DNA of 64,000 nt from positions 32,001 through 96,000 of the forward strand of contig CALSPG010000007.1 in the NCBI GenBank assembly GCA_943788175.1, written 5' to 3'. Below are positions 38,297 to 64,000 of this stretch, one piece after another. Under the pieces are notes generated by a model. The model was not told where the DNA came from and ran no database searches. It worked only from the letters and a program-made list of their open reading frames with translations. Both the position numbers and the translations under genes were made by a program. This DNA comes from an uncultured bacterium (lineage in GTDB: Bacteria > Fidelibacterota > Marinisomatia > Marinisomatales > UBA1611). Positions within the stretch are counted from its first letter, which is position 1. Every line of letters begins with the position of its first letter.

Positions 38297-38300
38297 TATA

Positions 38301-42748: not shown

Positions 42749-42749
42749 A

Positions 42750-44099: not shown

Positions 44100-44106
44100 C
44101 TTTTAC

Positions 44107-45465: not shown

Positions 45466-45513
45466 AATAGTATTTACTTTTAGTTTGTTATGTCGTTAAG
45501 TCATCTAGGAGAA

Positions 45514-45882
45514 TTAACTTAGATTAATTCTTTTATGTTTTTCTATTGGGCCTTGTATTAGGTCTTCAGATTTGCTTCGTTCAATTACTGTTCCACCCGC
45601 TTTATTTCTTTCTTTTTTATTTTTCCATTTGTAGTCTGTTTTAAACCAAGGAACCCAATTGTCCTTAATGGGATTGTATGTACACAGCAGGTCGTAAATA
45701 CCTCCTTTGGTTGGCCAACGAGGTATTGTTGGTTGGTCAGGTTCAAAATTTTTAACCCAGGATATGAAGTTTTTTTGATAAATAACCAATCCATCTCTTT
45801 TCCTATTTGATGACTCACCTCTGCAATTTTCGGAAATGGTAGACATAATTAAAACAATAATTAACTTTAAAGAGATAATCAT
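45514..45882 (-). CDS. Hypothetical protein (122 aa)
   Basis: ATGA overlap with the upstream GH16 stop; lies in the run of same-strand locus genes. Confidence 0.55.
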   Translation of the reverse strand: MIISLKLIIVLIMSTISENCRGESSNRKRDGLVIYQKNFISWVKNFEPDQPTIPRWPTKGGIYDLLCTYNPIKDNWVPWFKTDYKWKNKKERNKAGGTVIERSKSEDLIQGPIEKHKRINLS

Positions 45883-47150
45883 GGTTTTTTCTTATATACT
45901 CTAAAATGTTCTATTTCCATCTTGGTTGGGAATGCGTTGTCATCAATACCTTTAATTCCTCCCCAATTGCCACCGATAGCTATGTTCAATATAAAATGGA
46001 ATTTTTCATCAAAAGGCCATCTTTCCCAGGGTTGATTGTTTTTAGAGTAGGAGAATATTAATTTATCATCTACAAAAGTCTTAATCTGTTTTTCATCCCA
46101 TTCTAGTATGTAGTTTTTAAAGGTACTGATTACATCGTCAACGACGATGTGTTTTGTTTGGTCGGAATTAGAAAGGTCCCCATGGTGTGCAATATTATGA
46201 ACCGAAGAAACAATATGGCCTTCGTCAAAACCTACATGTTCTAGTACATCTATTTCTCCGCTATTTGGCCAATTACCATGCTTCCAATCGGTAGGTAGTC
46301 CCCAAAAAGCAGCCCATGTTCCAATTCCTCTTGGAAGTTTTGCTCTTATTTCAAATCTGCCATATTTCCAGCTCTTTTTTGTTTTTATTCTAGAACTAGT
46401 GTATTTAGATCCATAAAAATCTTCTTTTAATGCCTCAATGATTAGCTTCCCGTTTTTAATTCTAACATTCTTCAGGTCATCCGTGTAATACTGAGCCTCA
46501 TTATTCCCCCATCCTCCTCCTGTAACCCAGTTTAACTCTTTGTCAATTCTAGTTATAGGTTGTTTGTTTTTAGATGGTTTAAGCTTTTTATTTCTATAGT
46601 ATGTTCCTTCAAGCCCAGGCATCCCATTTTTAGTTGTGAGGTTGGGCCCCGAGATTAACCTTTTGGTAAAATTTTCACTTTCCCAGCCTAAAATCATTGC
46701 TTCGCCACCACTGTCTTCAAAATATTCGATTACTATTGGATATTTTTTGTTACCTTGAAGCGTTATTGTGCCTTTATTTTCTGTTGCAGGCTGAGCTTTC
46801 CAGTTATTGATTATGTTTTTGCCGTCGATAAAAAGCCGAACACCGTCATCTGATATTGTATAAAAAGTATATTTTGAGCTTTCATCTATTTTAATTTGAC
46901 CTTCCCAGCGAACTGAAAAATTATCACTTGGGAAGTCTTTTGGTGCGAAATATGGTGAGCTTATACCATACTCTTTGAATGAAGGTGCTCCTGTCCCAAT
47001 GTCGAACGCCCAGCTTGAAAGATCAATGTTTTTATTACTAAACTCATCTGACCAAACTAGGTTCCAGTCGTTAATGTTTTTGTTTTCTTCTTTGCATGAG
47101 TTCAGAAAAAAGGTTAGGGCAATCAAAAGCAAAGTAGATAAAAGGTGCAT
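45879..47150 (-). CDS. GH16 laminarinase-type lipoprotein with an inserted PA14 domain
   Basis: Lipobox LNSC; WSDEF...FDIGTG, PA14 motifs DNFSVRWEG and SDDGVRLFIDG, then GWGNNEAQYYT, GEIDVLEHVG. Confidence 0.9.
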   Translation of the reverse strand: MHLLSTLLLIALTFFLNSCKEENKNINDWNLVWSDEFSNKNIDLSSWAFDIGTGAPSFKEYGISSPYFAPKDFPSDNFSVRWEGQIKIDESSKYTFYTISDDGVRLFIDGKNIINNWKAQPATENKGTITLQGNKKYPIVIEYFEDSGGEAMILGWESENFTKRLISGPNLTTKNGMPGLEGTYYRNKKLKPSKNKQPITRIDKELNWVTGGGWGNNEAQYYTDDLKNVRIKNGKLIIEALKEDFYGSKYTSSRIKTKKSWKYGRFEIRAKLPRGIGTWAAFWGLPTDWKHGNWPNSGEIDVLEHVGFDEGHIVSSVHNIAHHGDLSNSDQTKHIVVDDVISTFKNYILEWDEKQIKTFVDDKLIFSYSKNNQPWERWPFDEKFHFILNIAIGGNWGGIKGIDDNAFPTKMEIEHFRVYKKKP

Positions 47151-47171
47151 AGCTTTATAAAATTGTAGAAA

Positions 47172-48182
47172 CTATACTTTAGTACTATTTCGTATAATAA
47201 TGTTTACAGGTATCATTGAAACTTGCCCAATAATCTCCTCTTTTTCAGATACCATATTCTCTATAGTTCGAATTGCCTGTTTCCCTAAATTTGCAAAATT
47301 TGTAGATATAGAAGTCAGTTCAGGGGTAATGGATTCACAAAAAGATAAATTATCGAAACCTGCTATTATAAAATCTTCTGGTATTTTGTAACCATGTTCG
47401 TTCGCAGCTTTCATAAACCCAAAACAAGAATGGTCATTGCAGCCAAATATTGCAATTTTGCTTAGTCCTTTATTTTTAAAATCAAGGAAGGCTTCACTCC
47501 CGGACTGACTTGAAAAATCACCTTCAAACCTCCACACAAGATCAAGAGATTCTCTTTCATTAATATGATCTATAAAACCATTTTTCCGGAAGGATGAATC
47601 CATCGCGTTTCTTGGCCCGGTGATTACGCCCACGTTTGTATACCCAACTTCTTCAAAATGCTTTGCTATCATATACCCGCCGCTGTAAGAATCAAAAGAA
47701 ACTGTATTTACTTTTAAATTTTTTCCTGAGATTAAAGATACAATTGGATAGGTACCTACACCTTCCTTTATTGCGGTATAGCTTTCTTTTTCGAGTCCAG
47801 GAAGAAAAAGACAAAGACCACTATATTTTTTACTCAATTTAATAATAAAGTCCACAGGGTCATCTTGCCAATTGTAATTATCATCTACTCGAGCATCAAT
47901 ATTTATGAAAACAATATCTGATTTTGAATCTCTCGTTGCTTTATGAAGTCCATGGAAAAGTGAGGAGTAAAACTCACCTTGTCTTATTTCGGTTATTAGG
48001 GCGATGGTTGTTTTTTCAGAGGCATCAGACTCTCCGATGAACGGGTATCCTAGTTTGCGAGCTGCGGCATAAATTTTTTCCTCATTAATTGAGTACTTTC
48101 TTTTTTTGCGTCTAAGCGCTCTTGATACAGTGGCTATTGATAACCCAGTATCGTCAGAAACTTGTTTTAGAGTTGCTCTCAT
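47172..48182 (-). CDS. LacI family transcriptional regulator
   Basis: TLKQVSDDTGLSIATVSRAL HTH; CND...IPEDFIIAGFDN...PELTSI sugar-binding domain. Confidence 0.93.
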   Translation of the reverse strand: MRATLKQVSDDTGLSIATVSRALRRKKRKYSINEEKIYAAARKLGYPFIGESDASEKTTIALITEIRQGEFYSSLFHGLHKATRDSKSDIVFINIDARVDDNYNWQDDPVDFIIKLSKKYSGLCLFLPGLEKESYTAIKEGVGTYPIVSLISGKNLKVNTVSFDSYSGGYMIAKHFEEVGYTNVGVITGPRNAMDSSFRKNGFIDHINERESLDLVWRFEGDFSSQSGSEAFLDFKNKGLSKIAIFGCNDHSCFGFMKAANEHGYKIPEDFIIAGFDNLSFCESITPELTSISTNFANLGKQAIRTIENMVSEKEEIIGQVSMIPVNIIIRNSTKV

Positions 48183-48415: not shown

Positions 48416-51400
48416 ATGAGCAAAAAGATATCGTTTTTCACTCTAATCTTTGTCCCTTTATTATCATTTGGTCAAATGCAGATAAATAGTTTCGATTCTG
48501 AGCCAGCTGATAGTACATACTGGGGATATGAAATTTCAGAAAATGCTGACAGTACAAAGAGTTTTGTAAATATCAGCTATATAACAGACCAAGCTGCCGA
48601 AGGGTCAAGTGCAATGCAACTTGAATATAGTGGTCACAACAGTGAGTCATGGGGTGGTTATGCAAAAATTGAGCATTATGCTCGTCAACCACTTCCTCCG
48701 GATACAACTGGTGGTGGAGGAACTGGACCTGGTATAGTTGATGGTTCTTCTATTATTTTTTCTGGCACTTTTGGTGGAAGTCAGGTAGATACTACAACGA
48801 TGACCTACACCAATCCTACTGGTTCAGAAAGCTGGGCTGGTTTTGCTAATGAAGACACTACATTTTACCCTTTTAGTTTCCCTGGTGGGGGGGCTATTAC
48901 TTTTATGGGTTCTACCGCTGGAACAGATGTTGATGTTAATTTTCGTTTTGAATATCAACCTCATCCAAATGTAGATCCATCGTATAATACAGCTAGTATA
49001 ACTATTTCTGGAACAGACCGACAGCCTTATACTGTCCAAATTCCTCCTCAAGGCAGCAACACTTACAGCTCATTTTTGTTATATGTGAACACTCTGGATG
49101 CTCCTGTAACAATTACACATGTCCATGTGCATGAGGGAATTATTTTTTCTGGCACTTTTGGTGGAAGTCAGGTAGATACTACAACGATGACCTACACCAA
49201 TCCTACTGGTTCAGAAAGCTGGGCTGGTTTTGCTAATGAAGATGCTTCAGTATTTCCATTTTCATTTCCAAATGGAGGACATGTTCAGTTCATGGGTTCT
49301 ACCGCTGGAACAGATGTTGATGTTAATTTTCGTTTTGAATATCAACCTCATCCAAATGTAGATCCATCATACAATACTGCGAGTGTAACTGTATCTGGAA
49401 CAGATCCACAGGCTTACACGGTTGAAGTCCCATCGCAAGGTGCAAACACATTCAGCTCATTTTTGTTATATGTGAACACTCTGGATGCTGCTGTAACAAT
49501 TACACATGTTCATGTGCATGAGAATCCTCCCCCAATGACAGACATTATTTTTTCTGGCACTTTTGGTGGAAGTCAGGTAGATACTACAACGATGACCTAC
49601 ACCAATCCTACTGGTTCAGAAAGCTGGGCTGGTTTTGCTAATGAAGATGCTTCAGTATTTCCATTTTCATTTCCAAATGGAGGACATGTTCAGTTCATGG
49701 GTTCTACCGCTGGAACAGATGTTGATGTTAATTTTCGTTTTGAATATCAACCTCATCCAAATGTAGATCCATCATACAATACTGCGAGTGTAACTGTATC
49801 TGGAACAGATCCACAGGCTTACACGGTTGAAGTCCCATCGCAAGGTGCAAACACATTCAGCTCATTTTTGTTATATGTGAACACTCTGGATGCTGCTGTA
49901 ACAATTACACATGTTCATGTGCATGAGAATTCAGCACCTTCTTTAATTCAAAATAATCAAATTGCTGGTGACTTAACTCAGCAAGATTGGCAGTCAACAC
50001 GGCAAGAAGATGGAACAACTATTTTTTCTATGCAGCGTGAAAATGGAGAGCTTTGGGACTGGTCTGGATATGATAGTATTTCTTTTAAATTTAATAATAC
50101 TATTCCTGCATCAGAGGCAAATAGAATACACCTAAGGTTGAATCTAAGTGATTACGCGGGGGTAGACAGTGTCTACACTGGTTTAGGTGAATATTATTAC
50201 TCTTTCAATTATATTCTAGATAGTGAGCCTGGTTGGAATACGGTTACCATACCATTAGTTAGAAATGACGACTGGAATGGTGGTGGTTTTAATTTAACGG
50301 GCTGGGCTGGTGACACTGATAATTCTGAACTAGACACCTACGCAATAGGTGGTTTCCATCTTGAGTTTTCTGTAGGTGGAGGTGGTGAAGGTGATGTTGT
50401 CAATGGCACTATTCTTCTTGATGATTTTAAGTTAGTTGGTTACAAAGGTGTTGATCTTGTAATCTTTAATGGAATGGCTTCTCCTCCAGAATGGGGCAAC
50501 TCATTTACTTGGGGAGGTGCACAGATATCCGTAACCGAAGGTGGTGGATATATTCCAGGGACTAATGCGCTTACGTATGTTCAGCAAGAATGCTTGGACA
50601 GGTGGTGGTTTTAACATGACTCCTCCTGTCGATCTTCGTGGTGGTGGCGAGTGGAATAGTGATTCAATTTCTTTCTGGATGCAATCAGAAGCAGATGCGC
50701 CTCAGTTAAGATTACAGTTTGAAGGCGGGACTGGTAAAGTTGGAGGAAATTTCACCCCAATAGCAGTTGGTGGTTGGAATCATTATAAGCTTGCACTAAA
50801 AGATTTTGCTTATGTAGATAACACCGCAGACTTTGATACTAGTGCTATTACTGTCTTTCAGATTCTTTCTGAAGGCAATGGTGCAGCAGGGAGAACGTTT
50901 CACTTTGATAATATGTGGACAGGGAATCCTGATATTGATGTAGTTGCTCCGGTTGCTCCTGAAAATGTAAGCGGGATACCAGGTGCTAATTTCAACTTAG
51001 TAACGTGGACAGATATTGATGGAGAAGAAGGTGAGATGTATCATGTTTTTGGTAGTACAAACCCAATTACTGAACTTAATGCTGAAGGTGTTGAATCTAT
51101 TGCAACAAATGTTATCGAAGGCGCTCAAACAGCAACTCATTATTTGGTGTCTCCCTTAGAAGATATGGACGTTACTTATTACTATGCTGTGTTATGTGTT
51201 GATGCCGCTGGTAATATTGGCGCTCCCGGAATAACGAGCTCTCCAGTTACAAATCAGGCAAAAGGAATTCCTACAATATCTCTCGATGTCCCTTCCAATT
51301 TTATTGCTGATGGAGACTTGGGAGAGTGGACAAACAGTGGAATTATGCCTTTTGTAATTAATCCAACAACTGGTGGTGTTTGGTCAAATGTTGATGATGA

Positions 51401-52223
51401 GTCAGACTTAAATGGAACTGTTTATTTAGCAATTGACGATGACTATTTATATTTTGCCGCAGATGTCATTGATGATGATTATCACTTTGGTGAAGGTAAT
51501 TGGTGGGATCAAGACGCTCTTCAATTGTTTCTAGGTTTATATGATTCAAGGGGTCCAAAACATTCAGCAATAAAAAGAGGTGAAGAGCCTGATTATGTAA
51601 TTTATGCGAATGAAAACACATTGCAATTAGACAATCCTGGAAATGTGAGTATAGGTAACTCTGATGAAGAACATTATCACTTTGAAATGTTCGATCCAGA
51701 TTATGTTGTAGAGGGTAAGATTTCTCTAGATACTCTTGCTGCATTATCAGGAGACCAAAGGTTTCATCCAGCTAATGGAATGAAAGTACCAATTGATATT
51801 TACTTTCATGATAATGATAATGGAACTTGGGAAGGTAATGTTGGTTACTCAACGCTTTCGAATGATCAACAGTGGAATAATCCAGGTGAGTGGTCATTTA
51901 CATGGATTGGTGATCGGTCTACAGTACTAGGAAACGATAATGAAGCACCGATTGCTCCTGAAGTATTCGCGCTTTACCCAAATTATCCTAACCCATTTAA
52001 CCCTGTTACAAATATCAACTTTTCACTTCCTGAGAACCAGAAGGTAAATCTTGGTATTTACAGTGTTACAGGTAGATTAGTTGAAAGCTTATTAAATGAA
52101 GACAGGGTCTCTGGTTTCCATTCAGTACAGTGGAATGCGGGAAGACATGCTTCAGGCGTTTATTTTTATCGATTAGATGCTGGGGCTAATTCAAAAACTC
52201 AAAAAATGATTTTATTAAAATAA
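48416..52223 (+). CDS. Secreted multi-CBM surface glycan-binding protein (CBM11-like, 3 tandem repeats, FN3-like, CBM9/DOMON-like, C-terminal sorting domain); +1 frameshift near 50589
   Basis: ORFs 48416-50614 and 50541-52223 join as QQDAWTGGG if one A is removed; IADGDLGEW...DDDYLYFAADVIDD is CBM9-like; NYPNPFNP...SGVYFYRL tail; no catalytic GH motif seen. Confidence 0.75.
48752..49930 (+). repeat. Three tandem ~387-bp intragenic repeats (129 aa each)
   Basis: Copies start at 48752, 49139 and 49544; copies 2 and 3 are identical by eye over 387 bp; copy 1 differs mainly in two patches. Confidence 0.95.
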
Positions 52224-52237
52224 ATTCATTTATTTTT

Positions 52238-52275
52238 TAAAAAGAAAGGCAGGATTTTTCCTGCCTTTCTTTTTA
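52238..52275 (+). terminator. Strong intrinsic terminator / stabilising hairpin
   Basis: Perfect 17-bp inverted repeat TAAAAAGAAAGGCAGGA-TTTT-TCCTGCCTTTCTTTTTA. Confidence 0.88.
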
Positions 52276-52328: not shown

Positions 52329-54983
52329 ATGATTAGATATATTATTTATATTGCGATGACTTGCGGAATCTTTGCTCAAACCACTGGTAAAATTTCTGGC
52401 ATAATAAAAGACAAGTCTGATTCTTCGCCCTTGCCAGGAGCAAACGTATATCTTGAAAATTCTTCTTTTGGAAATGCATCAGATGGAAATGGAAGATTCA
52501 CATTAATTAATATTCCGCCAGGGAAATACAATCTCAAAATTGATATGATTGGTTACAAGTCTATAAAAATGGAAAATATTTCTGTTTCCGTTAATAGAAC
52601 CTTTTCATTAGAAGTGGATCTTGAACAGACTGTGATTGAGGGTGAGGTTGTTACAGTTGAAGTTGCTAGGTTTTCTCAAAAAAAAGATCAAACAGGGACA
52701 ATTAAAAATATTTCAGGAGATGAAATAAACGCACTTCCAGTAGAGAATGTTGGGGCAGTAGTTAATATGCAAGCAGGTGTTGTAAACGGGCATTTTAGAG
52801 GCGGTAGAAATACTGAAGTTACCTATATGGTTGATGGCATACAGGTAGATGAAACATTTGGTGGATCAAGCGCAACAGTAGATATTCAGCCTGAAGCTGT
52901 GCAAGACTTAGAGGTTGTCACGGGGACATTTAATGCTGAGTATGGTAGAGCTATGAGCGGAGTGGTGAATGTTGTGACAAGAGATGGCGGGTCTAAATTT
53001 GAAGGTTCTGCATCATTGGGTGGTTCTTCATATTTTACGGATAATAATGATATTTTTATTGGACTTGACCCATCTGTCAATAAAAGCCAAGACATTAAAT
53101 TTAGTTTAGGTGGTCCTCTCGTAGGAAATAAGATAACTTTTTTTAGTAATGTAAGAGTGCAAAGTAATAATGGACACTTAAATGGTCTTAGGTTGTTTGA
53201 AGTAGATAATTTTTCAAATTTTTACACGGATGACTCACTGCTCTGGTTTTCAGAGAAATCGGGAGACAGTTCGTATGTGTCTATGAATTCAAGTAATAAT
53301 TTATCTGCTCTATTTAAGTTGAGTTTTAATCTTTTTAACGGTATCCGTTTTTCAACACTATACTCACACAGTGACGATAGTTGGCAGGGCTATGATCATT
53401 CTTTTAAATATAACCCAGATGGTAGGTCAACTGATCATAAAGTCACAAATTATTTTGCTTTTCAATTAAACCAAATGTTATCTCAAAAATTATTTTATGA
53501 ATTGAAGTATTCTGTTGTAGATAATGACTTTGGTAGTTACGTATATGAAAACCCATTAGACAGTAGATATGTACATGATCGTTATTATGATAGTTATGGT
53601 CCAGGGTTTTTAACAGGTGGTCAATCAAAGGACCATACGACTAGATCAATGACAGATCAGACTTTTAAATTGGATGTTAACTGGCAAGCTAATCACACGC
53701 ATAGTATTAAAGCAGGCCTTCACTATTTTAATCATGATTTAAAGAATGAGCGGTACGAAATAAGGAATAAATTTTATAATTCGGGTAGTGATTCTTCTTA
53801 TGTACCTGAAATTTTTGGAGATTCATCTGCTTATGCAGATGTTTATAACATTTCCCCAAAAGAAGTAGCATTTTATGTTCAAGATAAAATGGAATTTGAT
53901 GACATGGTTATTAATATTGGACTGCGTTATGATCAATTTGACCCTGAAAGTGTATACCCTTCAGATAGAAGAAACCCAGCAAATCAGCTAATTTTACCAG
54001 ACTCTATGATGAGTTTGTATCCTCAGGCTCCGGTTATTTCTCAAATTAGTCCAAGGGTTGGTTTTGCATATCAGTTAGGTGGTCAAGCTGTTCTGCATTT
54101 TAGTTATGGTCATTTTTTCCAGATGCCTCCTATGTATGCTATGTATGAAAATAATAGTTTTTTGGTTGACCCAAATAATTTTGTTACAAGGATGGGTAGC
54201 ACATTATTAGAACCAGAAAAAACAATTACCTATGAAATAGGTTTGTGGCAAGAATTAAATCAAGTGATGGCTCTAGATGTAGCACTTTTTTATAGAGATA
54301 TTTATAATTTATTAACTACTAAAACCATTTCAACCTATAATCAGGTAAAGTATGGATTATTTTCTAATAAAGACTATGGAAATGTTCGTGGGCTTGAGTT
54401 AAAGCTAGACCTTGCACTAGGTCAATTGAAAGGTATGGTAAATTATACATTACAATATACTAGGGGGAATGCTGATTCCCCTGGGCAAACATTTGACAGG
54501 GCTGGTAATAATCAAGACCCGGTAAATAGATTTATTCCAATGGGCTGGGACCAAAGGCATACACTGAACGGGTCTTTAATATATGGAACTGAGAAATACG
54601 GTGGTTCTATGACAGCATATTATAATTCGGGTTCTCCTTATACTTTCACGCCACAAAGTGAAAGCGTTTTATCTAGAATCAATTTGTACCCCAATAATGA
54701 TTATAGGCCTGAGAAATATTCTGTTGATTGTTCATTTTACTATCGCTTCAAACTGCCTGGTGGTTATAATGCCAATTTGGATTTAAATATTTATAATTTA
54801 TTTGATAGGTTAAATGAAGAGTGGGTCAATGAGCAAACCGGGCGCGCCTATACCGCAATAATTAAAGAAACAGATATTGCTGGGCATAGAAGTGATTTTA
54901 ATGATTATGAAGATCGTATAGAAAACCCATCGATGTATTCTTCACCTAGAATGGTAAAAATTGGTATCGGAGTTAATTTCTGA
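52329..54983 (+). CDS. TonB-dependent receptor
   Basis: Signal peptide, N-terminal CarboxypepD_reg-like domain (TTGKISG...PLPGANV), plug HFRGGR...YMVDG...FNAEYGRAMSGVVN, C-terminal GVNF. Confidence 0.93.
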   Translation: MIRYIIYIAMTCGIFAQTTGKISGIIKDKSDSSPLPGANVYLENSSFGNASDGNGRFTLINIPPGKYNLKIDMIGYKSIKMENISVSVNRTFSLEVDLEQTVIEGEVVTVEVARFSQKKDQTGTIKNISGDEINALPVENVGAVVNMQAGVVNGHFRGGRNTEVTYMVDGIQVDETFGGSSATVDIQPEAVQDLEVVTGTFNAEYGRAMSGVVNVVTRDGGSKFEGSASLGGSSYFTDNNDIFIGLDPSVNKSQDIKFSLGGPLVGNKITFFSNVRVQSNNGHLNGLRLFEVDNFSNFYTDDSLLWFSEKSGDSSYVSMNSSNNLSALFKLSFNLFNGIRFSTLYSHSDDSWQGYDHSFKYNPDGRSTDHKVTNYFAFQLNQMLSQKLFYELKYSVVDNDFGSYVYENPLDSRYVHDRYYDSYGPGFLTGGQSKDHTTRSMTDQTFKLDVNWQANHTHSIKAGLHYFNHDLKNERYEIRNKFYNSGSDSSYVPEIFGDSSAYADVYNISPKEVAFYVQDKMEFDDMVINIGLRYDQFDPESVYPSDRRNPANQLILPDSMMSLYPQAPVISQISPRVGFAYQLGGQAVLHFSYGHFFQMPPMYAMYENNSFLVDPNNFVTRMGSTLLEPEKTITYEIGLWQELNQVMALDVALFYRDIYNLLTTKTISTYNQVKYGLFSNKDYGNVRGLELKLDLALGQLKGMVNYTLQYTRGNADSPGQTFDRAGNNQDPVNRFIPMGWDQRHTLNGSLIYGTEKYGGSMTAYYNSGSPYTFTPQSESVLSRINLYPNNDYRPEKYSVDCSFYYRFKLPGGYNANLDLNIYNLFDRLNEEWVNEQTGRAYTAIIKETDIAGHRSDFNDYEDRIENPSMYSSPRMVKIGIGVNF

Positions 54984-57900
54984 TGAAATTGTTATTGTTA
55001 TTGTTATTGTTTTCCCAGTTGTTTTTTTCATTAATCTTCGCCCAGGGTCGACCTTATGCAGGCCCAGAAGACCCAGCGGGAGATCCTTCAGCTGAGCGTG
55101 AAGGGTATATGACAGGTAACAGGGTATTACTTTATTTTAAAAATACAACAGAGCTTTCTGATTGGCCAGCAACAAATGCTTCGAGGTGGCCAAATAATAA
55201 TGATGGTGTAAAGATGGTAGACGGGATAGGGCTCTTGGTTGGAGCTAAAGTATACATTAAAGATGATGGAGATGCTTCCACCGTGGACACAATCCCACTT
55301 ACTGACCCAATAGATATATTTACTCAGGATAAACACACATTACATTATTTGCAAACTAGTTACCGTGAAGAAATGGATCGGGACCCTACCGGCACTGTTG
55401 AATGGGGTTTTTATCCTGTTTTTGGATATTTTAATGAATCTGGAGAATATCCAGCTGTCTCAAATATCGAAGATTCATGGCCTTCCAGTGGTTGGCCGTC
55501 TGCTGGTTTAGAAAAAAAATGGCAAGGGGAATGGAATGGTAGATTTGGCCGAGGCGTTAAATATGCTGATCAAGAAAGTTATTATGTTGTTAATGATGCT
55601 CAAGATTTAGAATATCTCGGACCTGAAGACTTTGTTAAATATTACCCAAGGCCTGGATATAATATAGGAGATATTAAGCCGGATGTCACAAAGCAACGTG
55701 GCGAATCTTGGGGTGGTTTAGGGCTGCGTGTTGCTGTTCGTGGTTTTCAATGGAATAATCCTCAAGCTAGAGATGCTATTTTTTGGGAGTATTCAATCGC
55801 CAATGTATCTGACTACGATCTAAGAGATGTAGCTTTTGGATACTGGGTTGATAATGGGATTGGTAATGATGCTTCAGATGATATTGGCTTTTTTGATTAT
55901 GAAATTGATATGTCCTATTCTTGGGATATTAATGGTGTTGGTTCCGGTGGGCTTCCAACGGGGGTAATGGGTTTTGCATACCTAGAAAGTCCAGGCTTAG
56001 CTTATGATATGATTGATAACGATGGTGATGGATTAGTAGATGAAAAAAGAGATGTTGAAGCAACTGCCATTGTTGGTGCTACAGATGGAATAACAGACCT
56101 GAATGCTTTTTTAGATTATTATAAATTAACAGCTGATGATTTAAAACCTCATTGGGATGCTGACGAAGACCAAGATTGGGAGGATGGTGAAGATTTAAAT
56201 GGTGATGGTATATATCAACTTGCTGAGTTTTATGGAGATGATATTGGGATAGATGGCGTAGGTCCTGGAGAAATAAATTATACTGGCCCAGATGCTGATG
56301 GGTCAGAGTGTAATCATAGGCCTGATTTTGTTGAGGGTGTTGGCTGTGAGCCTAATTTTAATACAACAGATGTATCTGAATCTGATATGGTTGGGCTTAC
56401 ATCTTTTAGGATGTTCCCAATTCCAAGTCACGCGGCTTCAAATGAAACGCAGTGGTTTAAAAATGATGCAGTTATGTGGGATTTAATTGGTGGAGACACA
56501 TTAGAAGAGTTTGAAGGAAATATTTCAAACTTAGTTGAGGTTTTTGCATCGGGTCCTTTTCCATTATATCAAGGACGAGTTGAAAGAATTTCAATGGCTG
56601 AACTACATTCCTATGATCCTCTAGCGGGGCTTAACAGTCCTGGACATGAATCTCCAGCGCTTTACGAGCTTAAGAGGATTGTTCAGGTGATTTATGAAAA
56701 AGACTATCGATTTGCTCAGCCACCAAGAATGCCCACTATTTCAGCTACGGCTGGCGATAGTGAGGTTATTCTAACTTGGGATGATATTGCGGATACAAGG
56801 ACTAGGGACCCCTTCGTTGGAAACATTAATGATTTTGAGGGTTATAAGGTTTATAGGGCAACAGATAAATACATGGCTGATCCAGAAATTATTACAGATG
56901 GTTATGGTACTCCAACATTTAAGAAACCAATTTATCAATGTGACTTAATTGATGAATTTAGTGGTTTTACTGATTTTGGTCTCGTCAATGGTACAGGTTA
57001 TAATCTTGGAAACAACTCTGGAATCACACATATTTTCGTAGATAATACAGTTCAAAATGGGCGTACGTATTATTATGCTGTTGTTGCTTATGATTTTGGA
57101 GCGCCAAATATTGGACCGGGGATTTCACCATCAGAAAATAACACAGTCATTGAATTGGATGAGTATGAAAATATTAGGTCTATAGGTAAAAATATTGCCA
57201 TTGTCACTCCTCATCAAAAAGCAGCTGGGTATATATCTCCTGAAGTTGAGGTTGAAGAACGTTCTCTTCTCGGGTCTGGTATGGTCTCTCCTTTAATTAG
57301 AGCGCAAGGGAGCCTCAAAAAAGGGCATGAATATTCAATATCTTTTGGTATTGATACAGTATCTACTATTAGTGGATATGATAAGGGAATTCAATATACA
57401 ACTAGTGAAATCAATGTTTATGACCTTACTGATAGTGTTTTGGTTTACAGTGAAAACCCAACAAAATTTATAGGGAACAATCTTTTATATAGAGATACAG
57501 TTAATTATTGGACCCTTAATCCAAATGCAAATATATCTTCAGATGTATTTGATGGTCTGCAGTATGAAGTGAGTGATTATGTTGAAATCCCTGAGTACAG
57601 TTATCAAAATTCCGGATGGATAAATGGTAATGGTATAATGAGAGTTACTCCTTCATTATCAGAGGGTATTAAAATGCCATGGAATTACAAGGTTGTATTT
57701 ACTGATGATGATAATACATACGTTGGCGTGGCAACATCTGGAACGGTTAGGGATGAAAATGGTGCTTCAATAGGTTCATCTAAAATATCAAATCAGGCAG
57801 TTAATTTTTATGTTCAAAACACTTCATTTATTAATGAGTCAGGTGGTTATGACTTAATGGATGTGGTAATACATGATGTTAATGACAATGATATCTTTGA

Positions 57901-58435
57901 CTTGTACGAAGATAGGATTTTTATAGGAGCAACAGTAGGGACAAGGTGGCGAGCTACTGCTTTTGTCTTGGATTTTCAACTTTCAACTGAGACAACAATC
58001 CCAAAAGATGGGGATGTGTATCAAGTAGATTGGAATCGGCCATTTTATATAACGGACTCTATTCATTTCACTGTTAATTATTCAGAAGATTTAGACATTG
58101 AAGCCTTATCTAGCTCTATGGACAATATAATGGTAGTACCAAATCCATATGTAATGTCAAACATGATGGAGGAAGCAGTTACTAATCCTTTTTTAAATCA
58201 AAGAAGAAGAATTGTTTTTACAAATATCCCATCTCAGTGTTCTATTAAAATTTTTACAGTAAGTGGTGTTTTGGTGGATGAAATAAATGTAAATAATCCC
58301 CCAGAAAATGGTCTTATACAATGGGATATGCTTACCAGAGAAAGTTTAGAAATAGCTGCAGGGATGTATATATATCATGTCGAGGCAACAGAGACGGGCG
58401 ATACTAAAATTGGCAAGTTTGCGGTAATAAAATGA
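54983..58435 (+). CDS. Large secreted TBDR-associated protein with acidic Ca-binding-like repeats, FN3-like domain and C-terminal sorting domain
   Basis: Signal peptide; DNDGDGLVDE and EDLNGDG repeats; FEGYKVYR...NGRTYYYAVVAYD; VVPNPY...IFTVSG...GMYIYHV...KFAVIK tail. Confidence 0.8.
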   Translation: MKLLLLLLLFSQLFFSLIFAQGRPYAGPEDPAGDPSAEREGYMTGNRVLLYFKNTTELSDWPATNASRWPNNNDGVKMVDGIGLLVGAKVYIKDDGDASTVDTIPLTDPIDIFTQDKHTLHYLQTSYREEMDRDPTGTVEWGFYPVFGYFNESGEYPAVSNIEDSWPSSGWPSAGLEKKWQGEWNGRFGRGVKYADQESYYVVNDAQDLEYLGPEDFVKYYPRPGYNIGDIKPDVTKQRGESWGGLGLRVAVRGFQWNNPQARDAIFWEYSIANVSDYDLRDVAFGYWVDNGIGNDASDDIGFFDYEIDMSYSWDINGVGSGGLPTGVMGFAYLESPGLAYDMIDNDGDGLVDEKRDVEATAIVGATDGITDLNAFLDYYKLTADDLKPHWDADEDQDWEDGEDLNGDGIYQLAEFYGDDIGIDGVGPGEINYTGPDADGSECNHRPDFVEGVGCEPNFNTTDVSESDMVGLTSFRMFPIPSHAASNETQWFKNDAVMWDLIGGDTLEEFEGNISNLVEVFASGPFPLYQGRVERISMAELHSYDPLAGLNSPGHESPALYELKRIVQVIYEKDYRFAQPPRMPTISATAGDSEVILTWDDIADTRTRDPFVGNINDFEGYKVYRATDKYMADPEIITDGYGTPTFKKPIYQCDLIDEFSGFTDFGLVNGTGYNLGNNSGITHIFVDNTVQNGRTYYYAVVAYDFGAPNIGPGISPSENNTVIELDEYENIRSIGKNIAIVTPHQKAAGYISPEVEVEERSLLGSGMVSPLIRAQGSLKKGHEYSISFGIDTVSTISGYDKGIQYTTSEINVYDLTDSVLVYSENPTKFIGNNLLYRDTVNYWTLNPNANISSDVFDGLQYEVSDYVEIPEYSYQNSGWINGNGIMRVTPSLSEGIKMPWNYKVVFTDDDNTYVGVATSGTVRDENGASIGSSKISNQAVNFYVQNTSFINESGGYDLMDVVIHDVNDNDIFDLYEDRIFIGATVGTRWRATAFVLDFQLSTETTIPKDGDVYQVDWNRPFYITDSIHFTVNYSEDLDIEALSSSMDNIMVVPNPYVMSNMMEEAVTNPFLNQRRRIVFTNIPSQCSIKIFTVSGVLVDEINVNNPPENGLIQWDMLTRESLEIAAGMYIYHVEATETGDTKIGKFAVIK

Positions 58436-59478
58436 TTAAATATTTACTCATTCTTTCGCTCTTAATTTTATCTAGCATTGACGCTCAAATGATTCATCGA
58501 TATGGAACAACAACTGGAAATTTTTTAGAAATAGGAGTTGATAGCGAAGGCAGTGCTATGGGTGATGCTTTTGTAGCAGTTTCTGATGATATTTCTTCTA
58601 TATATTGGAACCCGGCAGGATTAGCTAGTTTAAATATGCCAAAATTAGCATTTATGAGTCAGCCTTGGATTGCTGGAATTAACATGTCTTTTACAGCTGG
58701 CGCATTCATCATTCCTAATTTAGGTAATATTGGTTTTGGCTTAACGCAAATGAATTATGGTGAAATGGATGTTACTACATTAGAATATCAAGGTGGTACA
58801 GGTGAGAGTTTTACGGCTTCTGATATTGCGGCATCGTTAACATTTTCACGGAAATTAGTTTCCTGGTTTTCTTTCGGTTCAACAATAAAATATGTAAGGT
58901 CTAATATTTGGCATAGTTCTGCTAGTGCGGTTGCTATTGATCTTGGAGTATTAGTTAATACAAATTTCTTTTCCTTTACGGGAAAAGATGAAGATGGTTT
59001 AAATATCGGGATGAGTATTTCAAATTATGGAAGTCGTATGCGGTTTGATGGTATAGATATTTATCAACCAATTGATATTTCTGAATATGAGGAGGGAAAT
59101 TATGGAGATGTCCCGGGACAATTCAGACCATCTGATTGGGAATTACCTTTGATTTTTAGGATTGGAGTTGCTCTAAAACCAATAAAAAATAATATTTCAC
59201 AACTTACACTTTCTGCAGATGCATTGCATCCTAATAACAATTCTGAGTCTATTAATGTTGGATGTGCTTTAGATAATACAATACCAGGCGTAGGTGTTTT
59301 TAGCTTAAGAGCTGGTACAAAAGCTTTATTTATGGATAAGACCGAATATGGTTATACCGCAGGCTTGGGTTTTAAGCTTTTTTATGTAGGAAATAAATTT
59401 GTATCTGTTGATTATGCTTATAAATCAATCGGTTTATTAGGCAATGTTAATGTATATACATTGGGATTTTCATTTTAG
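58432..59478 (+). CDS. PorV/PorQ-like (UPF0164) outer-membrane beta-barrel
   Basis: FLEIGV...AMGDAFVAVSDDISSIYWNPAGLA signature; alternating beta-strands; DYAY...LGFSF end. Confidence 0.85.
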   Translation: MIKYLLILSLLILSSIDAQMIHRYGTTTGNFLEIGVDSEGSAMGDAFVAVSDDISSIYWNPAGLASLNMPKLAFMSQPWIAGINMSFTAGAFIIPNLGNIGFGLTQMNYGEMDVTTLEYQGGTGESFTASDIAASLTFSRKLVSWFSFGSTIKYVRSNIWHSSASAVAIDLGVLVNTNFFSFTGKDEDGLNIGMSISNYGSRMRFDGIDIYQPIDISEYEEGNYGDVPGQFRPSDWELPLIFRIGVALKPIKNNISQLTLSADALHPNNNSESINVGCALDNTIPGVGVFSLRAGTKALFMDKTEYGYTAGLGFKLFYVGNKFVSVDYAYKSIGLLGNVNVYTLGFSF

Positions 59479-59484
59479 TATCAT

Positions 59485-60957
59485 ATGATGCTCCGGATCT
59501 TTTTTGGAGTCCTTTTCCTTCTCCTATTAACTAATTGTTCTAATAAAGACATATCAAAGCCAAGCCTTGATATTCTTGCACAGGTTGGTGATAAAATAAT
59601 TACGAAACAAGATTTTATTAGAAGATCTGAGTACACAATAAGACCAGATTATTGTAGACAATCAAATTATATACATAAAAAAATTATACTTAATTCGCTT
59701 ATTGCTGAAAAAATAACTTCTATTGAAATGGAAGATAAAGAGGATGTTTTACTAAATAGTCAGAATTTTCATTATTATTTGCAAGGTAGAAAAGAACAAG
59801 CGATGAGAAAATTATATTATTATGAAAACTTTTATAAAGGTGCCAAAGTTCCTGATAGCATAGTTAACGAAAAATATAAATTAGCAGGCAGAACAATAGA
59901 TATTAGTTATATCAACTTGCCAGATATCAATACGGTACAGAAAGTTAAACAGCTTATTTCCCAAAACATTACAATTGAAGAAATTTATTTTTCAATATGG
60001 GGAGATACAATACCAACTAAAAAAATTAATTTTTTTGATAAGGAACCCGATATCATTCACGAAAAATTATTTGTGATAGATAATAAAAAAAATCAAACAA
60101 TTGGTCCCTTTGAAGTTGAAGACGGCAGCTTTTTAATCATGAAAATTAACGGTTGGTCCGATACAAAATTTATATCTGCAGTTAATCAAGAAAAAATATG
60201 GGAAGATGTAGAAAAATTGGTAAAAGAAAAAGAAGCGAAAACTAAATATTTGAGTTTTGTTAAAAAAATGATGTCTGGCAAAAGTATTCAATTCAACAAA
60301 GATGTTTTTGAAGACTATGCACACAAAGCTTCTAAAATCTATTTACAAGACCCAATGGATAAAAAAGATGCAATTAATAAAATGTTATGGGATGAAATAG
60401 AAAATCCTAAAAAAATTAGTCTCCAAAACAATCCAAACATAAAACCAGGCGATGTTATTATGATATTTGATAATGAAGAAATAACAGTCGAAAAATTAAA
60501 CCGCCTAATAAAATCCCACCCTTTAGTTTTTAGAAAAAGAAAAATAAGTGAAGGTAGATTTAGACAGGAATTAAAATTAGCTCTAGCTGATTTAATAAGA
60601 GATGTTGAGCTAAATAAAAAATGTTATGATCTAGAACTTCATAAGGATATTAGAGTTAAAACAAATGTGGATATGTGGCATGATGCTTATTCAAGCAAAA
60701 GGTTTATGTCTTCTCTAAAACTTGCGGCAAAATCAGAAAGAAAGAACAAATACAATTTTGATAACAATGTAATAAACTATTTACAAAATAAACATTCGAA
60801 TATTATAAAAATTAACACAGATATGTTTGAAAATATTACTATAACATCGACAGACATGCTTGTTTCAGAAAGAGGCCTTGCCTATCCTTTTATTGTTCCT
60901 TCATTTCCAGTTATTACATCTGATGATCGGTTAGATTATGGCTCAAAATTAAATTAA
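59485..60957 (+). CDS. Foldase-like (SurA/PrsA-type) lipoprotein, probably degenerate PPIase
   Basis: Lipobox LTNC; LAQVGDKIITKQDF...LNSLIAEK SurA_N-like start; GPFE..DG..IMKI rotamase-like segment. Confidence 0.65.
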   Translation: MMLRIFFGVLFLLLLTNCSNKDISKPSLDILAQVGDKIITKQDFIRRSEYTIRPDYCRQSNYIHKKIILNSLIAEKITSIEMEDKEDVLLNSQNFHYYLQGRKEQAMRKLYYYENFYKGAKVPDSIVNEKYKLAGRTIDISYINLPDINTVQKVKQLISQNITIEEIYFSIWGDTIPTKKINFFDKEPDIIHEKLFVIDNKKNQTIGPFEVEDGSFLIMKINGWSDTKFISAVNQEKIWEDVEKLVKEKEAKTKYLSFVKKMMSGKSIQFNKDVFEDYAHKASKIYLQDPMDKKDAINKMLWDEIENPKKISLQNNPNIKPGDVIMIFDNEEITVEKLNRLIKSHPLVFRKRKISEGRFRQELKLALADLIRDVELNKKCYDLELHKDIRVKTNVDMWHDAYSSKRFMSSLKLAAKSERKNKYNFDNNVINYLQNKHSNIIKINTDMFENITITSTDMLVSERGLAYPFIVPSFPVITSDDRLDYGSKLN

Positions 60958-60966
60958 AGAATTCTA

Positions 60967-62757
60967 ATGAAATTTATTTTAATAGTCTCCATTTTTTTAA
61001 ATATTGCTTATTGCAGGCAATACAGGGGTGCAGAATTGCGAACGACAGAATCTTTTCTTTATGGTAGGTTTGATGCTTGTTTTAAGCCAGCTCAGGGCGA
61101 TGGTTTAGTTTCATCTTTTTTCACTTACAATGATGACAACCCTAATACACCTTGGGCGGAGATAGACGTAGAGGTTTTAGGTGTTTATAATAATGTTGTT
61201 GATTTTAATACAATAACAAGGGGTCAAGATTCACATATTAGACAGCACTATGTGGATTTTAACCCACACCTGAATTTTCATACTTATAGCTTTGAATGGA
61301 CACCCGATTATGTAGCCTGGTTTATTGACAATGATGAGGTCTATAGGCAAACAGGGTCTCATGTAGACTCTCTTTATGTATCACAAAAAATTATGATGAA
61401 TATTTGGAATCCAGTATATACGGATTGGGTTGGCTCTTGGGACTCTGAAATCTTACCAAGATTTTCTTATTATGATTATGTTAGTTATTCAGCATATACG
61501 CCCGGGACAGGGGATAATGGTACCGAATCTAATTTCACATTTTCTTGGAAAGATGATTTTGACACTTTTGATGATAATAGGTGGGAAAAAAGTGATGATC
61601 ATACCTGGGGAGGGAATCAATCCCTTTTTATTGATGAGAATATTTATTTTGAAAATGGTAATCTAATTTTATGTCTTACAGATGAAGATAATATTGGGTA
61701 TGTAGATAATTACCCACCCAAAGTTCTTTGGGCCAGACAAAATGAAGATATTTTAACTATTCGGTATAGTGAAGAAATAGATGAGTCCAGCGGTGTTGAA
61801 TTAAGCAATTATAGTTTATCAGGGGTTACATTTACAAATGCATTAATGCATAATGATCAAAGAACTGTTGATCTAACAATGGATCAATTCATCTTAAGCT
61901 CTACTGCTATGGGGATATTTAATGCTCAGGATGATAGTGATAATCTTGCCAGTACAAATATAGTTTGGATTGATATTCCTCAACCTTTGGGGGATACTAT
62001 AAAGATTAATACTGGAGGTGGCCCTGCTGCTGATTTTTTACAAGATCAGATTTGGGGCCCGGATAAAGAATATGGGCATGTTGCAGGTAATTTTCAATTC
62101 GCTAGTGATGATGTAGACATTCAAAATACTGAGAATGATGATATTTATAGATCATCATTAAACAGGGTAGCTCTCTATAAAATTAGAGTTAAACCCGGGG
62201 TCTATTCATTGGGACTATCCTTTTCCGAAAATCACTATGACAATGCGGGAGAAAGAGTTTTTGATATTTTTGTTGAAGGCAATCTCAAGGTAGATGGGCT
62301 TGATGTTCTTGATCATGTCCCAGCTTTTTCTTTATATAATATTAGTCTTGATAATATTGAAGTTCTAGACGGGGTCTTAGATATTCATCTATCTGCAGAT
62401 ATATATGGTGTGGGATATGCTGCTGCCGGAACATTTATTAATAGTATTGAGGTCATGCTTGAAAGTTCACTTTCAAATGACACAAATGTGTTGAATAAAT
62501 TTTCATTGCAAAAACCATATCCAAATCCATTTAATAATCAAATTTCGATTCCCATAATTAGCAATATTAAAAGCAAAGCACTTATAGAAATATTCGATGT
62601 AAATGGTAGAAAAGTTGAAACCATATATAATGGGATAATTTTACAAGGGAAGACTGAATTTAAATGGGATGCAAAATTTTACTCGTCTGGGACTTATTTG
62701 ATATACTTACTTATAAATGGAGAGAAATCGTATGAAAAAATCATGCTTATTAAATAA
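60967..62757 (+). CDS. GH16 lichenase-type (circularly permuted) glucanase with Ig-like, malectin and C-terminal sorting domains
   Basis: YRGAELRT, WAEIDVEVLG, WKDDFD...ILCLT; malectin INTGG...LSFSE...GERVFDIFVEG; YPNPFN tail. Confidence 0.88.
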   Translation: MKFILIVSIFLNIAYCRQYRGAELRTTESFLYGRFDACFKPAQGDGLVSSFFTYNDDNPNTPWAEIDVEVLGVYNNVVDFNTITRGQDSHIRQHYVDFNPHLNFHTYSFEWTPDYVAWFIDNDEVYRQTGSHVDSLYVSQKIMMNIWNPVYTDWVGSWDSEILPRFSYYDYVSYSAYTPGTGDNGTESNFTFSWKDDFDTFDDNRWEKSDDHTWGGNQSLFIDENIYFENGNLILCLTDEDNIGYVDNYPPKVLWARQNEDILTIRYSEEIDESSGVELSNYSLSGVTFTNALMHNDQRTVDLTMDQFILSSTAMGIFNAQDDSDNLASTNIVWIDIPQPLGDTIKINTGGGPAADFLQDQIWGPDKEYGHVAGNFQFASDDVDIQNTENDDIYRSSLNRVALYKIRVKPGVYSLGLSFSENHYDNAGERVFDIFVEGNLKVDGLDVLDHVPAFSLYNISLDNIEVLDGVLDIHLSADIYGVGYAAAGTFINSIEVMLESSLSNDTNVLNKFSLQKPYPNPFNNQISIPIISNIKSKALIEIFDVNGRKVETIYNGIILQGKTEFKWDAKFYSSGTYLIYLLINGEKSYEKIMLIK

Positions 62758-64000
62758 CAAATTAATAAAAACAATAACTTCTATTTTTTTATTTCAGATT
62801 ATGTCATGTAGTTCTATTGATGGTGAAGTAAGCAAGTTAGTTTCATCTATGACTCTTGAAGAAAAAATTGGTCAAATGACGCAGGTTGATTATCGTTACT
62901 TAGCAGATAAGGCTGACATTGGAAAATATTTTTTGGGATCAATTTTAAGTGGTGGTGGCTCTACGCCCCCCACAAACCAGCCATCATCTTGGGTTGATTT
63001 ATATAACAGTTTCCAGGAGAGGCTCTTAAAACCAGGCTTAAGATTCCATTAATATATGGTATTGATGCAGTTCATGGTCATAATAATGTTCTAGGTGCAA
63101 CTATGTTCCCTCATAATATTGGTCTTGGTTGCGCTAATGATAAAGCATTAGTACAAGAAATCGCCGCTGCGACTGCTGCTGAGGTAAAAGCAACTGGTCT
63201 AGATTGGACGTTTGCGCCTTGTGTTGCGGTAGCCCAGGATGAAAGGTGGGGAAGAACCTATGAAAGTTTTTCTGAGGATTCTGAAATAGTAACTGAACTG
63301 GGAGTTGCCTCCACAATAGGATATCAAGGTAGAACGTTAAATAAGAATTCAGTACTTGCTTGTGCAAAACATTTTGTAGGAGATGGTAACACTGTCTTTG
63401 GAACCGGGACGAACTGGTATAAAATTGATCGTGGAGATGTTGTTTTAGATGAAGAAGAATTAAGGAGTAAATATATTAAACCATTTCAAGAGTCTATAAA
63501 AATGGGCGTAGGTAGTATTATGGTTTCATACAATAGCTGGAAAGGGAAAAAACTCCATGGCCATAAATACCTAATTAATGATGTCCTTAAAAAAGAATTA
63601 AAATTTGATGGTATAGTTGTTTCTGATTGGGCTGGGATCAATGAGCTAGATAAAGATTATAAAACATGTATCATTCAATCTATTAATGCTGGGATAGATA
63701 TGAATATGGTTCCCGGTAGCCTGAACCCTGATGATAATTCGTACGATGATTTTATAAGGTTAGCAATAGAGTCCGTTAAAGAAGGTTCTATTCCAATGGA
63801 AAGGATTGATGATGCTGTATCAAGAATATTAAAAATAAAAAAGAAACTAGGACTTTTTGATAAGCCAATTAAAGCTCCAAAAAATACGGATGTAGTTGGT
63901 TCAAAAAAGCATAGAGATTTAGCTAGAAAGAGTGTTCGGAAATCTTTAGTGCTATTAAAGAATAAAGGAGATATTCTTCCTTTAAATAAAGACAGTGGTA
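62732..64000 (+). CDS. GH3 beta-glucosidase, partial, with a 1-nt frameshift near 63017
   Basis: MTLEEKIGQMTQ, GSILSGGGS; the shifted frame continues LKIPLIYGIDAVHGHNNV, RWGRTYES, CAKHFVGDG, VSDW to the window end. Confidence 0.9.

Follow-up and report, generated by a model that had tools for sequence, protein, structure and literature searches.

The window analysed here is a 64,000-nucleotide stretch of DNA (contig CALSPG010000007.1, positions 32,001 to 96,000, assembly GCA_943788175.1) from an uncultured bacterium of the order Marinisomatales. Within a beta-glucan locus of this window, four open reading frames (ORFs) lie in a row on the plus strand. They encode a TonB-dependent transporter (the receptor; 52329-54983, 884 amino acids [aa]), an unnamed secreted protein (the large protein; 54983-58435, 1150 aa), an outer-membrane barrel of the PorV/PorQ family (58432-59478, 348 aa), and an accessory lipoprotein (59485-60957, 490 aa). 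The first three genes, referred to as the trio, represent a real, widespread, and apparently undescribed outer-membrane module. The genes are joined by TGATG at 54981-54985, by ATGA at 58432-58435, and by a 6-bp gap at 59479-59484. Both ORFs and junctions agreed exactly with the first-pass annotation, a description made from the letters of the DNA, which had proposed four contiguous and tightly coupled genes in a beta-glucan locus.

Proteins of the cassette

The receptor carries the Pfam domains PF13715, PF07715, and PF00593, arranged as a CarboxypepD_reg-like domain at residues 22-110, a plug at 118-212, and a beta-barrel thereafter. Both plug and barrel are intact, and one TonB is encoded in the genome. 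No SusC/RagA model was found among the eight NCBIfam families listed for the receptor at E≤0.01, and no characterised transporter family scored over its cut-off.

Because the signal peptide of the large protein ends in AQ, without a lipobox, and its first cysteine does not occur before residue 443, this protein is, as judged from sequence, not a lipoprotein, in agreement with the first-pass annotation. Of 99 relatives, 94 have the motif [AGS]Q close to the N-terminus. Pfam gave no match for the large protein, nor for at least 16 of the 18 relatives checked (CHU_C was found in one of the 18, with E 0.007). The family comprises 1533 clusters at 50% identity (E≤1e-10), and an Atlas search with the large protein gave scores all at or below 0.80. 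A structural model built from 77 sequences was of high confidence (pLDDT 92.1, pTM 0.81). Since this model is mostly beta, the large protein is predicted not to be SusD-like, and the earlier view that the partner differs from SusD was borne out to this extent. A SusD chain was not among the matches listed by three fold searches, such absence being no test in itself.

Residues 29-579 (55067-56719) are modelled as a galactose-mutarotase-like beta-supersandwich, aligned by VIA-align to 9ju0 with Z 18.6, root-mean-square deviation (rmsd) 3.2, and 257 residues aligned. The best fold matches were the N-terminal domains of GH15, GH94, GH65, and GH116 (Z 15-19; chains 13-19), the top ones giving Z 18.6-19.3, rmsd of about 3.2, about 255 aligned residues, and 8% identity. 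In GH15, GH65, GH94, and GH116 enzymes, a catalytic (alpha/alpha)6 barrel comes after the supersandwich; past residue 579 of the large protein, the model shows only two short helices and no counterpart of that barrel. Residues 336-470 (55988-56392) make an acidic, loop-rich insertion with almost no secondary structure in the model, in which the carboxylates D345, D347, D349, D394, D420, D463, E466, and D468 are near-invariant. Because of its acidic motifs, including the conserved DNDGDG at 345 and DLNGDG at 404, the insertion is predicted to bind calcium.

An FN3-like domain with conserved insertions follows at residues 580-745 (56720-57217), recognised from its strand pattern, from a weak match to 3mpc (E 0.049), and from FN3 arrays found by Foldseek. 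Two more all-beta regions at residues 750-1030 (57230-58072) are defined by strands of the model and were barely covered by the fold searches. By its fold matches, the last part (residues 1039-1150; 58097-58435) is a divergent type IX secretion system (T9SS) C-terminal domain (CTD), resembling those of PorZ and PorU. It aligned to the PorZ CTD (5m11) with Z 13.4, rmsd 2.0, 93 residues aligned, and 25% identity, and to the PorU CTD (6za2) with Z 11.3, and it carries VVPNPY at residues 1051-1056. Where the first-pass annotation had seen acidic repeats, conserved acidic motifs were found; its PNPY-type CTD was recovered, and its FN3-like domain was recovered on weak evidence.

The barrel scored 192 bits on NF033709 (cut-off 90), and stayed under both equivalog cut-offs (82.9 against 250 for PorV, 91.8 against 220 for PorQ). 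The best PorV candidate of the genome is a different gene (contig C9, position 29438), scoring 183 on PorV. In a tree made in quick mode, with long branches and with phylum labels taken from submitters' titles, 63 cassette barrels were placed far from the other paralogues of the genome. Neither the PorP/SprF family nor the type B CTD was among the families listed for the barrel or the large protein.

In the lipoprotein, C18 is invariant in 46 rows, and a loose lipobox test was positive for 30 of 38, the other three genes giving 15-28 of 99. The lipoprotein itself matched no family in Pfam and NCBIfam, and its profile found nothing in PDB. Comparison by hhalign with the SurA of the window gave a probability of 1.4%, which is not significant, and a single-sequence model reached pLDDT 32. 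Its Atlas neighbours carry Rotamase (0.94-0.96), its family profile matches a Rotamase_2 protein (E 0.0036), and distant relatives match SurA_N_3 and EpsD PPIase. From these relatives, the lipoprotein is likely a SurA/PrsA-type chaperone with a degenerate parvulin domain. The earlier assignment of a dedicated foldase is likely as to the type of protein and did not hold as to its dedication, the gene being optional: it is present in 40 of 58 judgeable close loci and absent from the three other cassettes of this genome.

Conservation of the trio and its genomic setting

The set of close loci consists of the best-scoring 78 of at least 498 confirmed loci. The trio is complete in 61 of these 78, with gaps of 400 bp or less in 55 of the 61; each of the 17 incomplete loci runs into a contig edge within about 300 bp on the side where the gene is missing. 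This linkage is far above chance. With T for the receptor, L for the large protein, and P for the barrel, the gene orders T-L-P, T-P-L, and L-T-P were all seen. All of 20 more distant loci picked by hand contain the barrel, and 19 of them the receptor; in 13, a SurA-like gene separates the large protein from the barrel. In 60 further loci of the phylum, partly overlapping the first set, barrel and receptor were each found in 58. The records of relatives are titled Neomarinimicrobiota, Calditrichota, KSB1, Ignavibacteriota, Rhodothermaceae, and some 'Cytophagia' or 'Bacteroidetes' bins, all being submitters' labels; the closest of the named relatives belong to Candidatus Neomarinimicrobiota (Marinisomatota). 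In an even sampling of 151 genomes of the phylum, the large-protein family was detected in 127 and SprA in 150.

Carbohydrate-active enzymes (CAZymes) were detected with ten profiles of our own in 49 of the 78 close loci, and in 36 of the 44 loci of at least 17 kb; GH16 was present in 28 of the 78. Two of the eight long loci missed by these profiles hold GH89 or GH59/GH35 according to Pfam. Pfam families near the close loci include GH2, GH5, GH9, GH27, GH30, GH38, GH59, GH63-like, GH89, GH92, and GH97, and neighbours in the distant set include GH130, GH53, GH13, GH31, and sugar ABC genes. A single subfamily (43-75% identity) has neighbouring enzymes that act on beta-glucan, alpha-mannan, galactosides, and N-acetylglucosaminides. 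Both the conservation of the trio and its linkage to CAZymes, on which the earlier proposal depended, were thus observed.

The genome (2.27 Mb, 92% complete) and the window gave no match to the SusD models PF07980 and PF14322, as had been expected, and a B. thetaiotaomicron control matched. SprA (SprA_N) and PorU scored over cut-off in the genome, PorU lying away from the cassette locus. Together with the fold of the CTD, these genes agree with the proposed export of the partner by a T9SS-like route. On contig C5, three further cassettes of receptor, large protein, and barrel were found, one of which is doubled and contains frame breaks.

T9SS CTDs were identified on 85 ORFs of the genome, and 12 of them score below 45 bits on the profile of ordinary CTDs. 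Divergent CTDs come with their own barrel: a PorV/PorQ-like barrel gene is found no more than 30 bp from nine of the 12, and no more than 100 bp from two of the 73 with an ordinary CTD (Fisher p 3e-8, with the 45-bit cut-off picked after the scores were seen and the profile built from the same cargo). Five of these nine are paralogues of the large protein, and one of the barrels was initially included by eye and later matched with E 5e-7. The proteins with divergent CTDs include an M6-like protease (C9:30844) and a 701-aa protein near SprA, each adjoining a PorV/PorQ-like barrel.

Several observations were made alongside this survey. In L046, L070, L071, L138, L139, and L145, two or more large-protein genes form tandem arrays per barrel gene, which suggests exchangeable partners. 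A second conserved locus type (L131-L146) contains LacI, a 650-aa protein, a CTD protein, and the trio enclosing a SurA-like gene, followed by a sugar ABC transporter and GH130; its substrate is possibly mannan or a mannoside. The doubled cassette on C5 (524848-536792; L003) has one receptor followed by two pairs of large protein and barrel, with several frame breaks and with PKD repeats in the second large protein. In the very small genomes of one family of the phylum sample (f3, with G023, G031, G039, and others; 0.8-1.1 Mb), SprA was detected in nine of nine and the large protein in none of nine. MotA, MotB, the C-terminal part of FliF, and FliG lie in a row about 10 kb past the glucan locus (C7:109586-114060; L005:15587-20000). 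FlhA and flagellin were not found in the genome, their controls having matched; from sequence, this motor, which is of flagellar type and has no flagellum, could take the place of the motor missing from the T9SS.

Proposed tethering and capture, and alternative readings

Covariation between the three proteins was analysed on 100 paired triplets, corresponding to about 82 effective rows. The method has some signal, because 30% of the top within-protein pairs were short-range and hairpin-like, versus 6%. As controls, the large protein was swapped between near neighbours 25 times. Between large protein and barrel, the CTD took part in 19 of the top 50 pairs and 29 of the top 100, as compared with control means of 8.2 and 15.4 and control maxima of 12 and 23. 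The top pair, R1119-K303, reached z 12.3 against a control maximum of 10.2, and the CTD residues I1130, V1133, and I1143 each pair with A81 of the barrel. Because covariation of the CTD with the barrel next to it exceeds that in each of the 25 controls, the tethering step has direct computational support; the lid and glycan-binding steps are inferred. The barrel likely holds the large protein on the cell surface by this CTD. As for the dedicated PorV paralogue suggested previously, the covariation of the CTD with its own barrel speaks for it, and a one-to-one pairing did not hold, since several large proteins share a barrel in some loci. No covariation pattern was seen for receptor-barrel pairs. 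An apparent covariation of the FN3-like domain with the receptor (27 of the top 100 pairs) was gone under the neighbour-swap controls.

From these findings we propose a chain of steps. The large protein would very probably be exported by Sec and then through SprA, as its signal peptide, the CTD fold, and the T9SS genes suggest. Fold, adjacency, and covariation point to its being kept, with high probability, on the cognate barrel, as PorZ is on PorQ and PorU on PorV. It would probably then join the transporter and hand over substrate cut by the secreted GH16 and GH5 enzymes, for which the linkage of the genes argues. With a similar degree of probability, the fold suggests that the N-terminal supersandwich binds glucan fragments without catalysis. 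For the lipoprotein, a role as optional SurA/PrsA-type folding helper of the module may hold or fail with an even chance. We lean slightly toward the chain as a whole, in which a surface partner, tethered to the barrel by its CTD, would capture sugar for the TonB transporter as SusD does.

A number of observations weigh against this proposal. The contact between partner and receptor, assumed in the first-pass annotation, gained no support from covariation and rests on gene linkage: the top receptor/large-protein pair (z 10.2) stayed below the control maximum of 11.3, and the FN3-like domain took 20 of the top 100 pairs, compared with a control mean of 21.7. The alignment used for covariation, at about 82 effective rows, is shallow. 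The CTD scored 21.9 bits on TIGR04183 (type A), below the cut-off of 23. GldM and GldN were not found in the genome, in a search for which the controls were silent and which did not include GldK and GldL. In L046, L070, L071, L138, and L145, one barrel serves two to three or more large proteins, unlike a one-to-one lid. The supersandwich fold is itself catalytic in aldose epimerases, and occurs in lyases and in a GH174 enzyme. SusD_RagB is present in 26 of the 151 phylum genomes, and 22 of those among the rows listed also have the large protein; contrary to the first-pass annotation, SusD is thus not wholly replaced in this lineage. The C5 cassettes are neighboured by amidase, FG-GAP, M43 peptidase, and arylsulfotransferase genes, GH18 lying 3 kb from one of them. 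CAZyme profiles gave 0 of 43 in one non-glycan subfamily, whose loci are short and closely related and were scanned with profiles from the first set. Because CAZymes lie near most of the close loci versus none of the 43 in this control subfamily, we consider the module a general transporter accessory, of which the subfamily in the window is the glycan-linked branch. The earlier term of glycan importer is accordingly too narrow, as the module also exists outside glycan loci.

The alternative that survives best, which we still consider unlikely, is that large protein and barrel form an independent surface unit for glycan binding or adhesion, of the SusE/F or SprB-SprF kind, next to a transporter without a lid. 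It would explain why covariation ties the CTD to the barrel and not the large protein to the receptor, and why large-protein copies occur in tandem per receptor; lid-less TonB-dependent transporters for glycosides are described in Gammaproteobacteria in the available part of a review (PMC13543919). However, no locus with enough flanking DNA has large protein and barrel without the receptor, and the receptor stays adjacent despite changes in gene order while the surrounding CAZymes differ. Pairwise distances of receptor and large protein also correlate at 0.96, a value that shared descent alone can yield. Prediction of a complex between receptor residues 220-884 and large-protein fragment 574-876 (95 paired rows) scored 0.00 twice, which is no evidence either way.

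Somewhat less probable again is that the large protein is an enzyme tethered at the surface by the barrel, similar to an epimerase, a lyase, or a new kind of hydrolase, which would trim or convert the substrate at the transporter. The supersandwich does match aldose 1-epimerases (Z 11-13), polysaccharide lyases (Z 12.8), and a GH174 fucanase (Z 13.1), and its carboxylates E198, D205, and E335 are near-invariant. The higher matches (Z 15-19) are nevertheless to N-terminal domains of glycoside hydrolases, whose (alpha/alpha)6 barrel is missing from the model. In GalM, the cleft of the sandwich contains a catalytic His and a catalytic Glu, both conserved. In the large protein, no His of the supersandwich is conserved across the wide family (H542 occurs in 72% of only 43 rows). 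The occurrence of one subfamily amid such diverse glycan chemistries also fits a binder better than an enzyme.

It is quite improbable that the TonB-type barrel serves instead to assemble or anchor the large protein, which would make the trio a surface scaffold or a private export route. In favour of this reading, the T9SS component PorF is a TonB-receptor-like barrel, the receptor is under cut-off for every characterised transporter family, and a SurA-like chaperone accompanies the trio in two subfamilies at different positions. Against it, plug and barrel are intact with TonB in the genome, an export route through SprA already exists in 150 of the 151 genomes of the phylum sample, and the locus, which encodes GH3, GH30, GH1, and GH149 for oligosaccharides, contains no other outer-membrane importer.

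Neighbouring features and relation to known systems

The cassette is surrounded by a beta-glucan cluster of four GH16, GH5-CBM6, GH149 (over cut-off), GH30, GH1, GH3, LacI, and a CBM9-CTD protein. Downstream, a GH16-malectin-CTD gene begins at 60967, 9 bp past the fourth gene, and is followed by GH3 (60967-63999 together, plus strand); the operon extends beyond the cassette. The left arm of the locus (35115-48182, minus strand) holds, by family matches, GH5-CBM6-CTD, three GH16, GH149, GH30, GH1, and the LacI regulator. Between this arm and the receptor, the protein with CBM9 and an ordinary CTD (48416-52223, plus strand) contains three near-identical repeats of about 130 aa each. It is split into two overlapping ORFs near 50589, its relatives being single ORFs. 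One base is missing at 50589 in contigs of runs X1, X3, and X18, and an extra base occurs in all four runs near 63014-63016, at the GH3 start; because the run contigs differ there by one base, both frame breaks are probably assembly errors. A perfect, terminator-like inverted repeat of 16 bp (52239-52274) was read by eye between the CBM9 gene and the receptor, and was absent from the output of a computational scan. Promoter-like sites were not enriched (66 observed, 69 in shuffles), and a Pfam scan found no further outer-membrane importer in the locus of the window. RNA runs X1 and X2 cover the region evenly, in a DNA-like manner; run X3 covers parts of all four genes, and one contig spans the junction of receptor and large protein. 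Such contigs cannot show transcription or a single transcript and were not used as support. Elsewhere in the window, adjoining dnaA, three successive ORFs (26652-32394) with lamin-tail and Ig-like domains and a CTD on the last may be one large secreted protein broken by frame breaks.

In the trio, as in the polysaccharide utilisation loci of Bacteroidota with their SusC/SusD (RagA/RagB) pairs, a surface partner comes after a TonB transporter, the two standing at the core of a cluster of CAZymes and a regulator; the module is reused with different CAZyme sets. SusD is a lipoprotein with an alpha-helical (TPR) fold, whereas the partner described here is twice as long, mostly beta, devoid of a lipobox, and carries a T9SS CTD at its end. 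A constant third gene is present, encoding the PorV/PorQ-family barrel, and no SusC or SusD model was matched. The trio would work like SusC/SusD, yet falls outside that family by its defining tests.

The CTDs of PorZ and PorU are uncleaved and retained on PorQ and PorV (PMC10202324). The CTD described here is closest to these two in fold and likewise has a cognate PorV-like barrel; however, PorZ-PorQ and PorU-PorV, both pairs of the T9SS attachment complex, serve cargo processing and not uptake, a TonB-dependent transporter is not described as part of them in the available text of PMC10202324, and the rest of the large protein is unrelated to PorZ and PorU. Cargo with a type B CTD (SprB-SprF, PG1035-PorP) is genetically linked to its own 14-stranded barrel, which secretes and anchors it (PMC12618676, PMC9143113). 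The present barrel differs in belonging to the PorV/PorQ family, and the CTD is nearer to type A; the word 'TonB' does not occur in PMC9143113. In BamA-BamG-BamH of the BAM complex of Bacteroidota, a FadL-family barrel adjoins a larger barrel and keeps a surface protein above the latter, and peptidyl-prolyl isomerase subunits are present (PMC12578637). The likeness is one of architecture only and is used as an analogy, since in that complex, which assembles outer-membrane proteins, the surface protein BamH is a lipoprotein and the large barrel is BamA.

PorV, type IX, Marinisomatota, and Ignavibacter do not occur in the available text of a 2026 review of glycoside transporters (PMC13543919). 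Likewise, the available text of the Melioribacter roseus genome paper reports a SusC/D/E operon without mention of the trio (PMC3534657), and that of the Caldithrix abyssi paper does not mention the trio (PMC5317091). No description of the trio was found in the literature searched, which lay outside subscription journals and supplements. The cognate-barrel principle of the T9SS is known, and its pairing with a TonB transporter is not described in the literature found, as far as its available parts go.

The large-protein family is commoner than SusD in the phylum sample (127 versus 26 of 151), also occurs in several related phyla, and has no Pfam name. Polysaccharide utilisation loci are recognised by SusC/D as their hallmark (available part of PMC13543919), so that loci based on the trio would be missed or called incomplete. 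The idea is testable, because some relatives are in records titled Melioribacter roseus and Caldithrix, genera with cultured members. If the large protein is a capture partner, it would be a marker to find and type uptake loci in abundant marine and sediment bacteria, would account for how SAR406 could take up laminarin, and would tie type IX secretion directly to import. We tentatively extend this, at somewhat less than even likelihood, to the view that phyla around Bacteroidota, namely Marinisomatota, Calditrichota, KSB1, and Ignavibacteriota, build most of their nutrient importers from a TonB transporter, a PorV-like barrel beside it, and an exchangeable T9SS-secreted lid kept in place by its uncut tail. 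Should this three-part importer be real, outer-membrane transport with a lid would have a second general architecture, and type IX secretion a core role in nutrient uptake.

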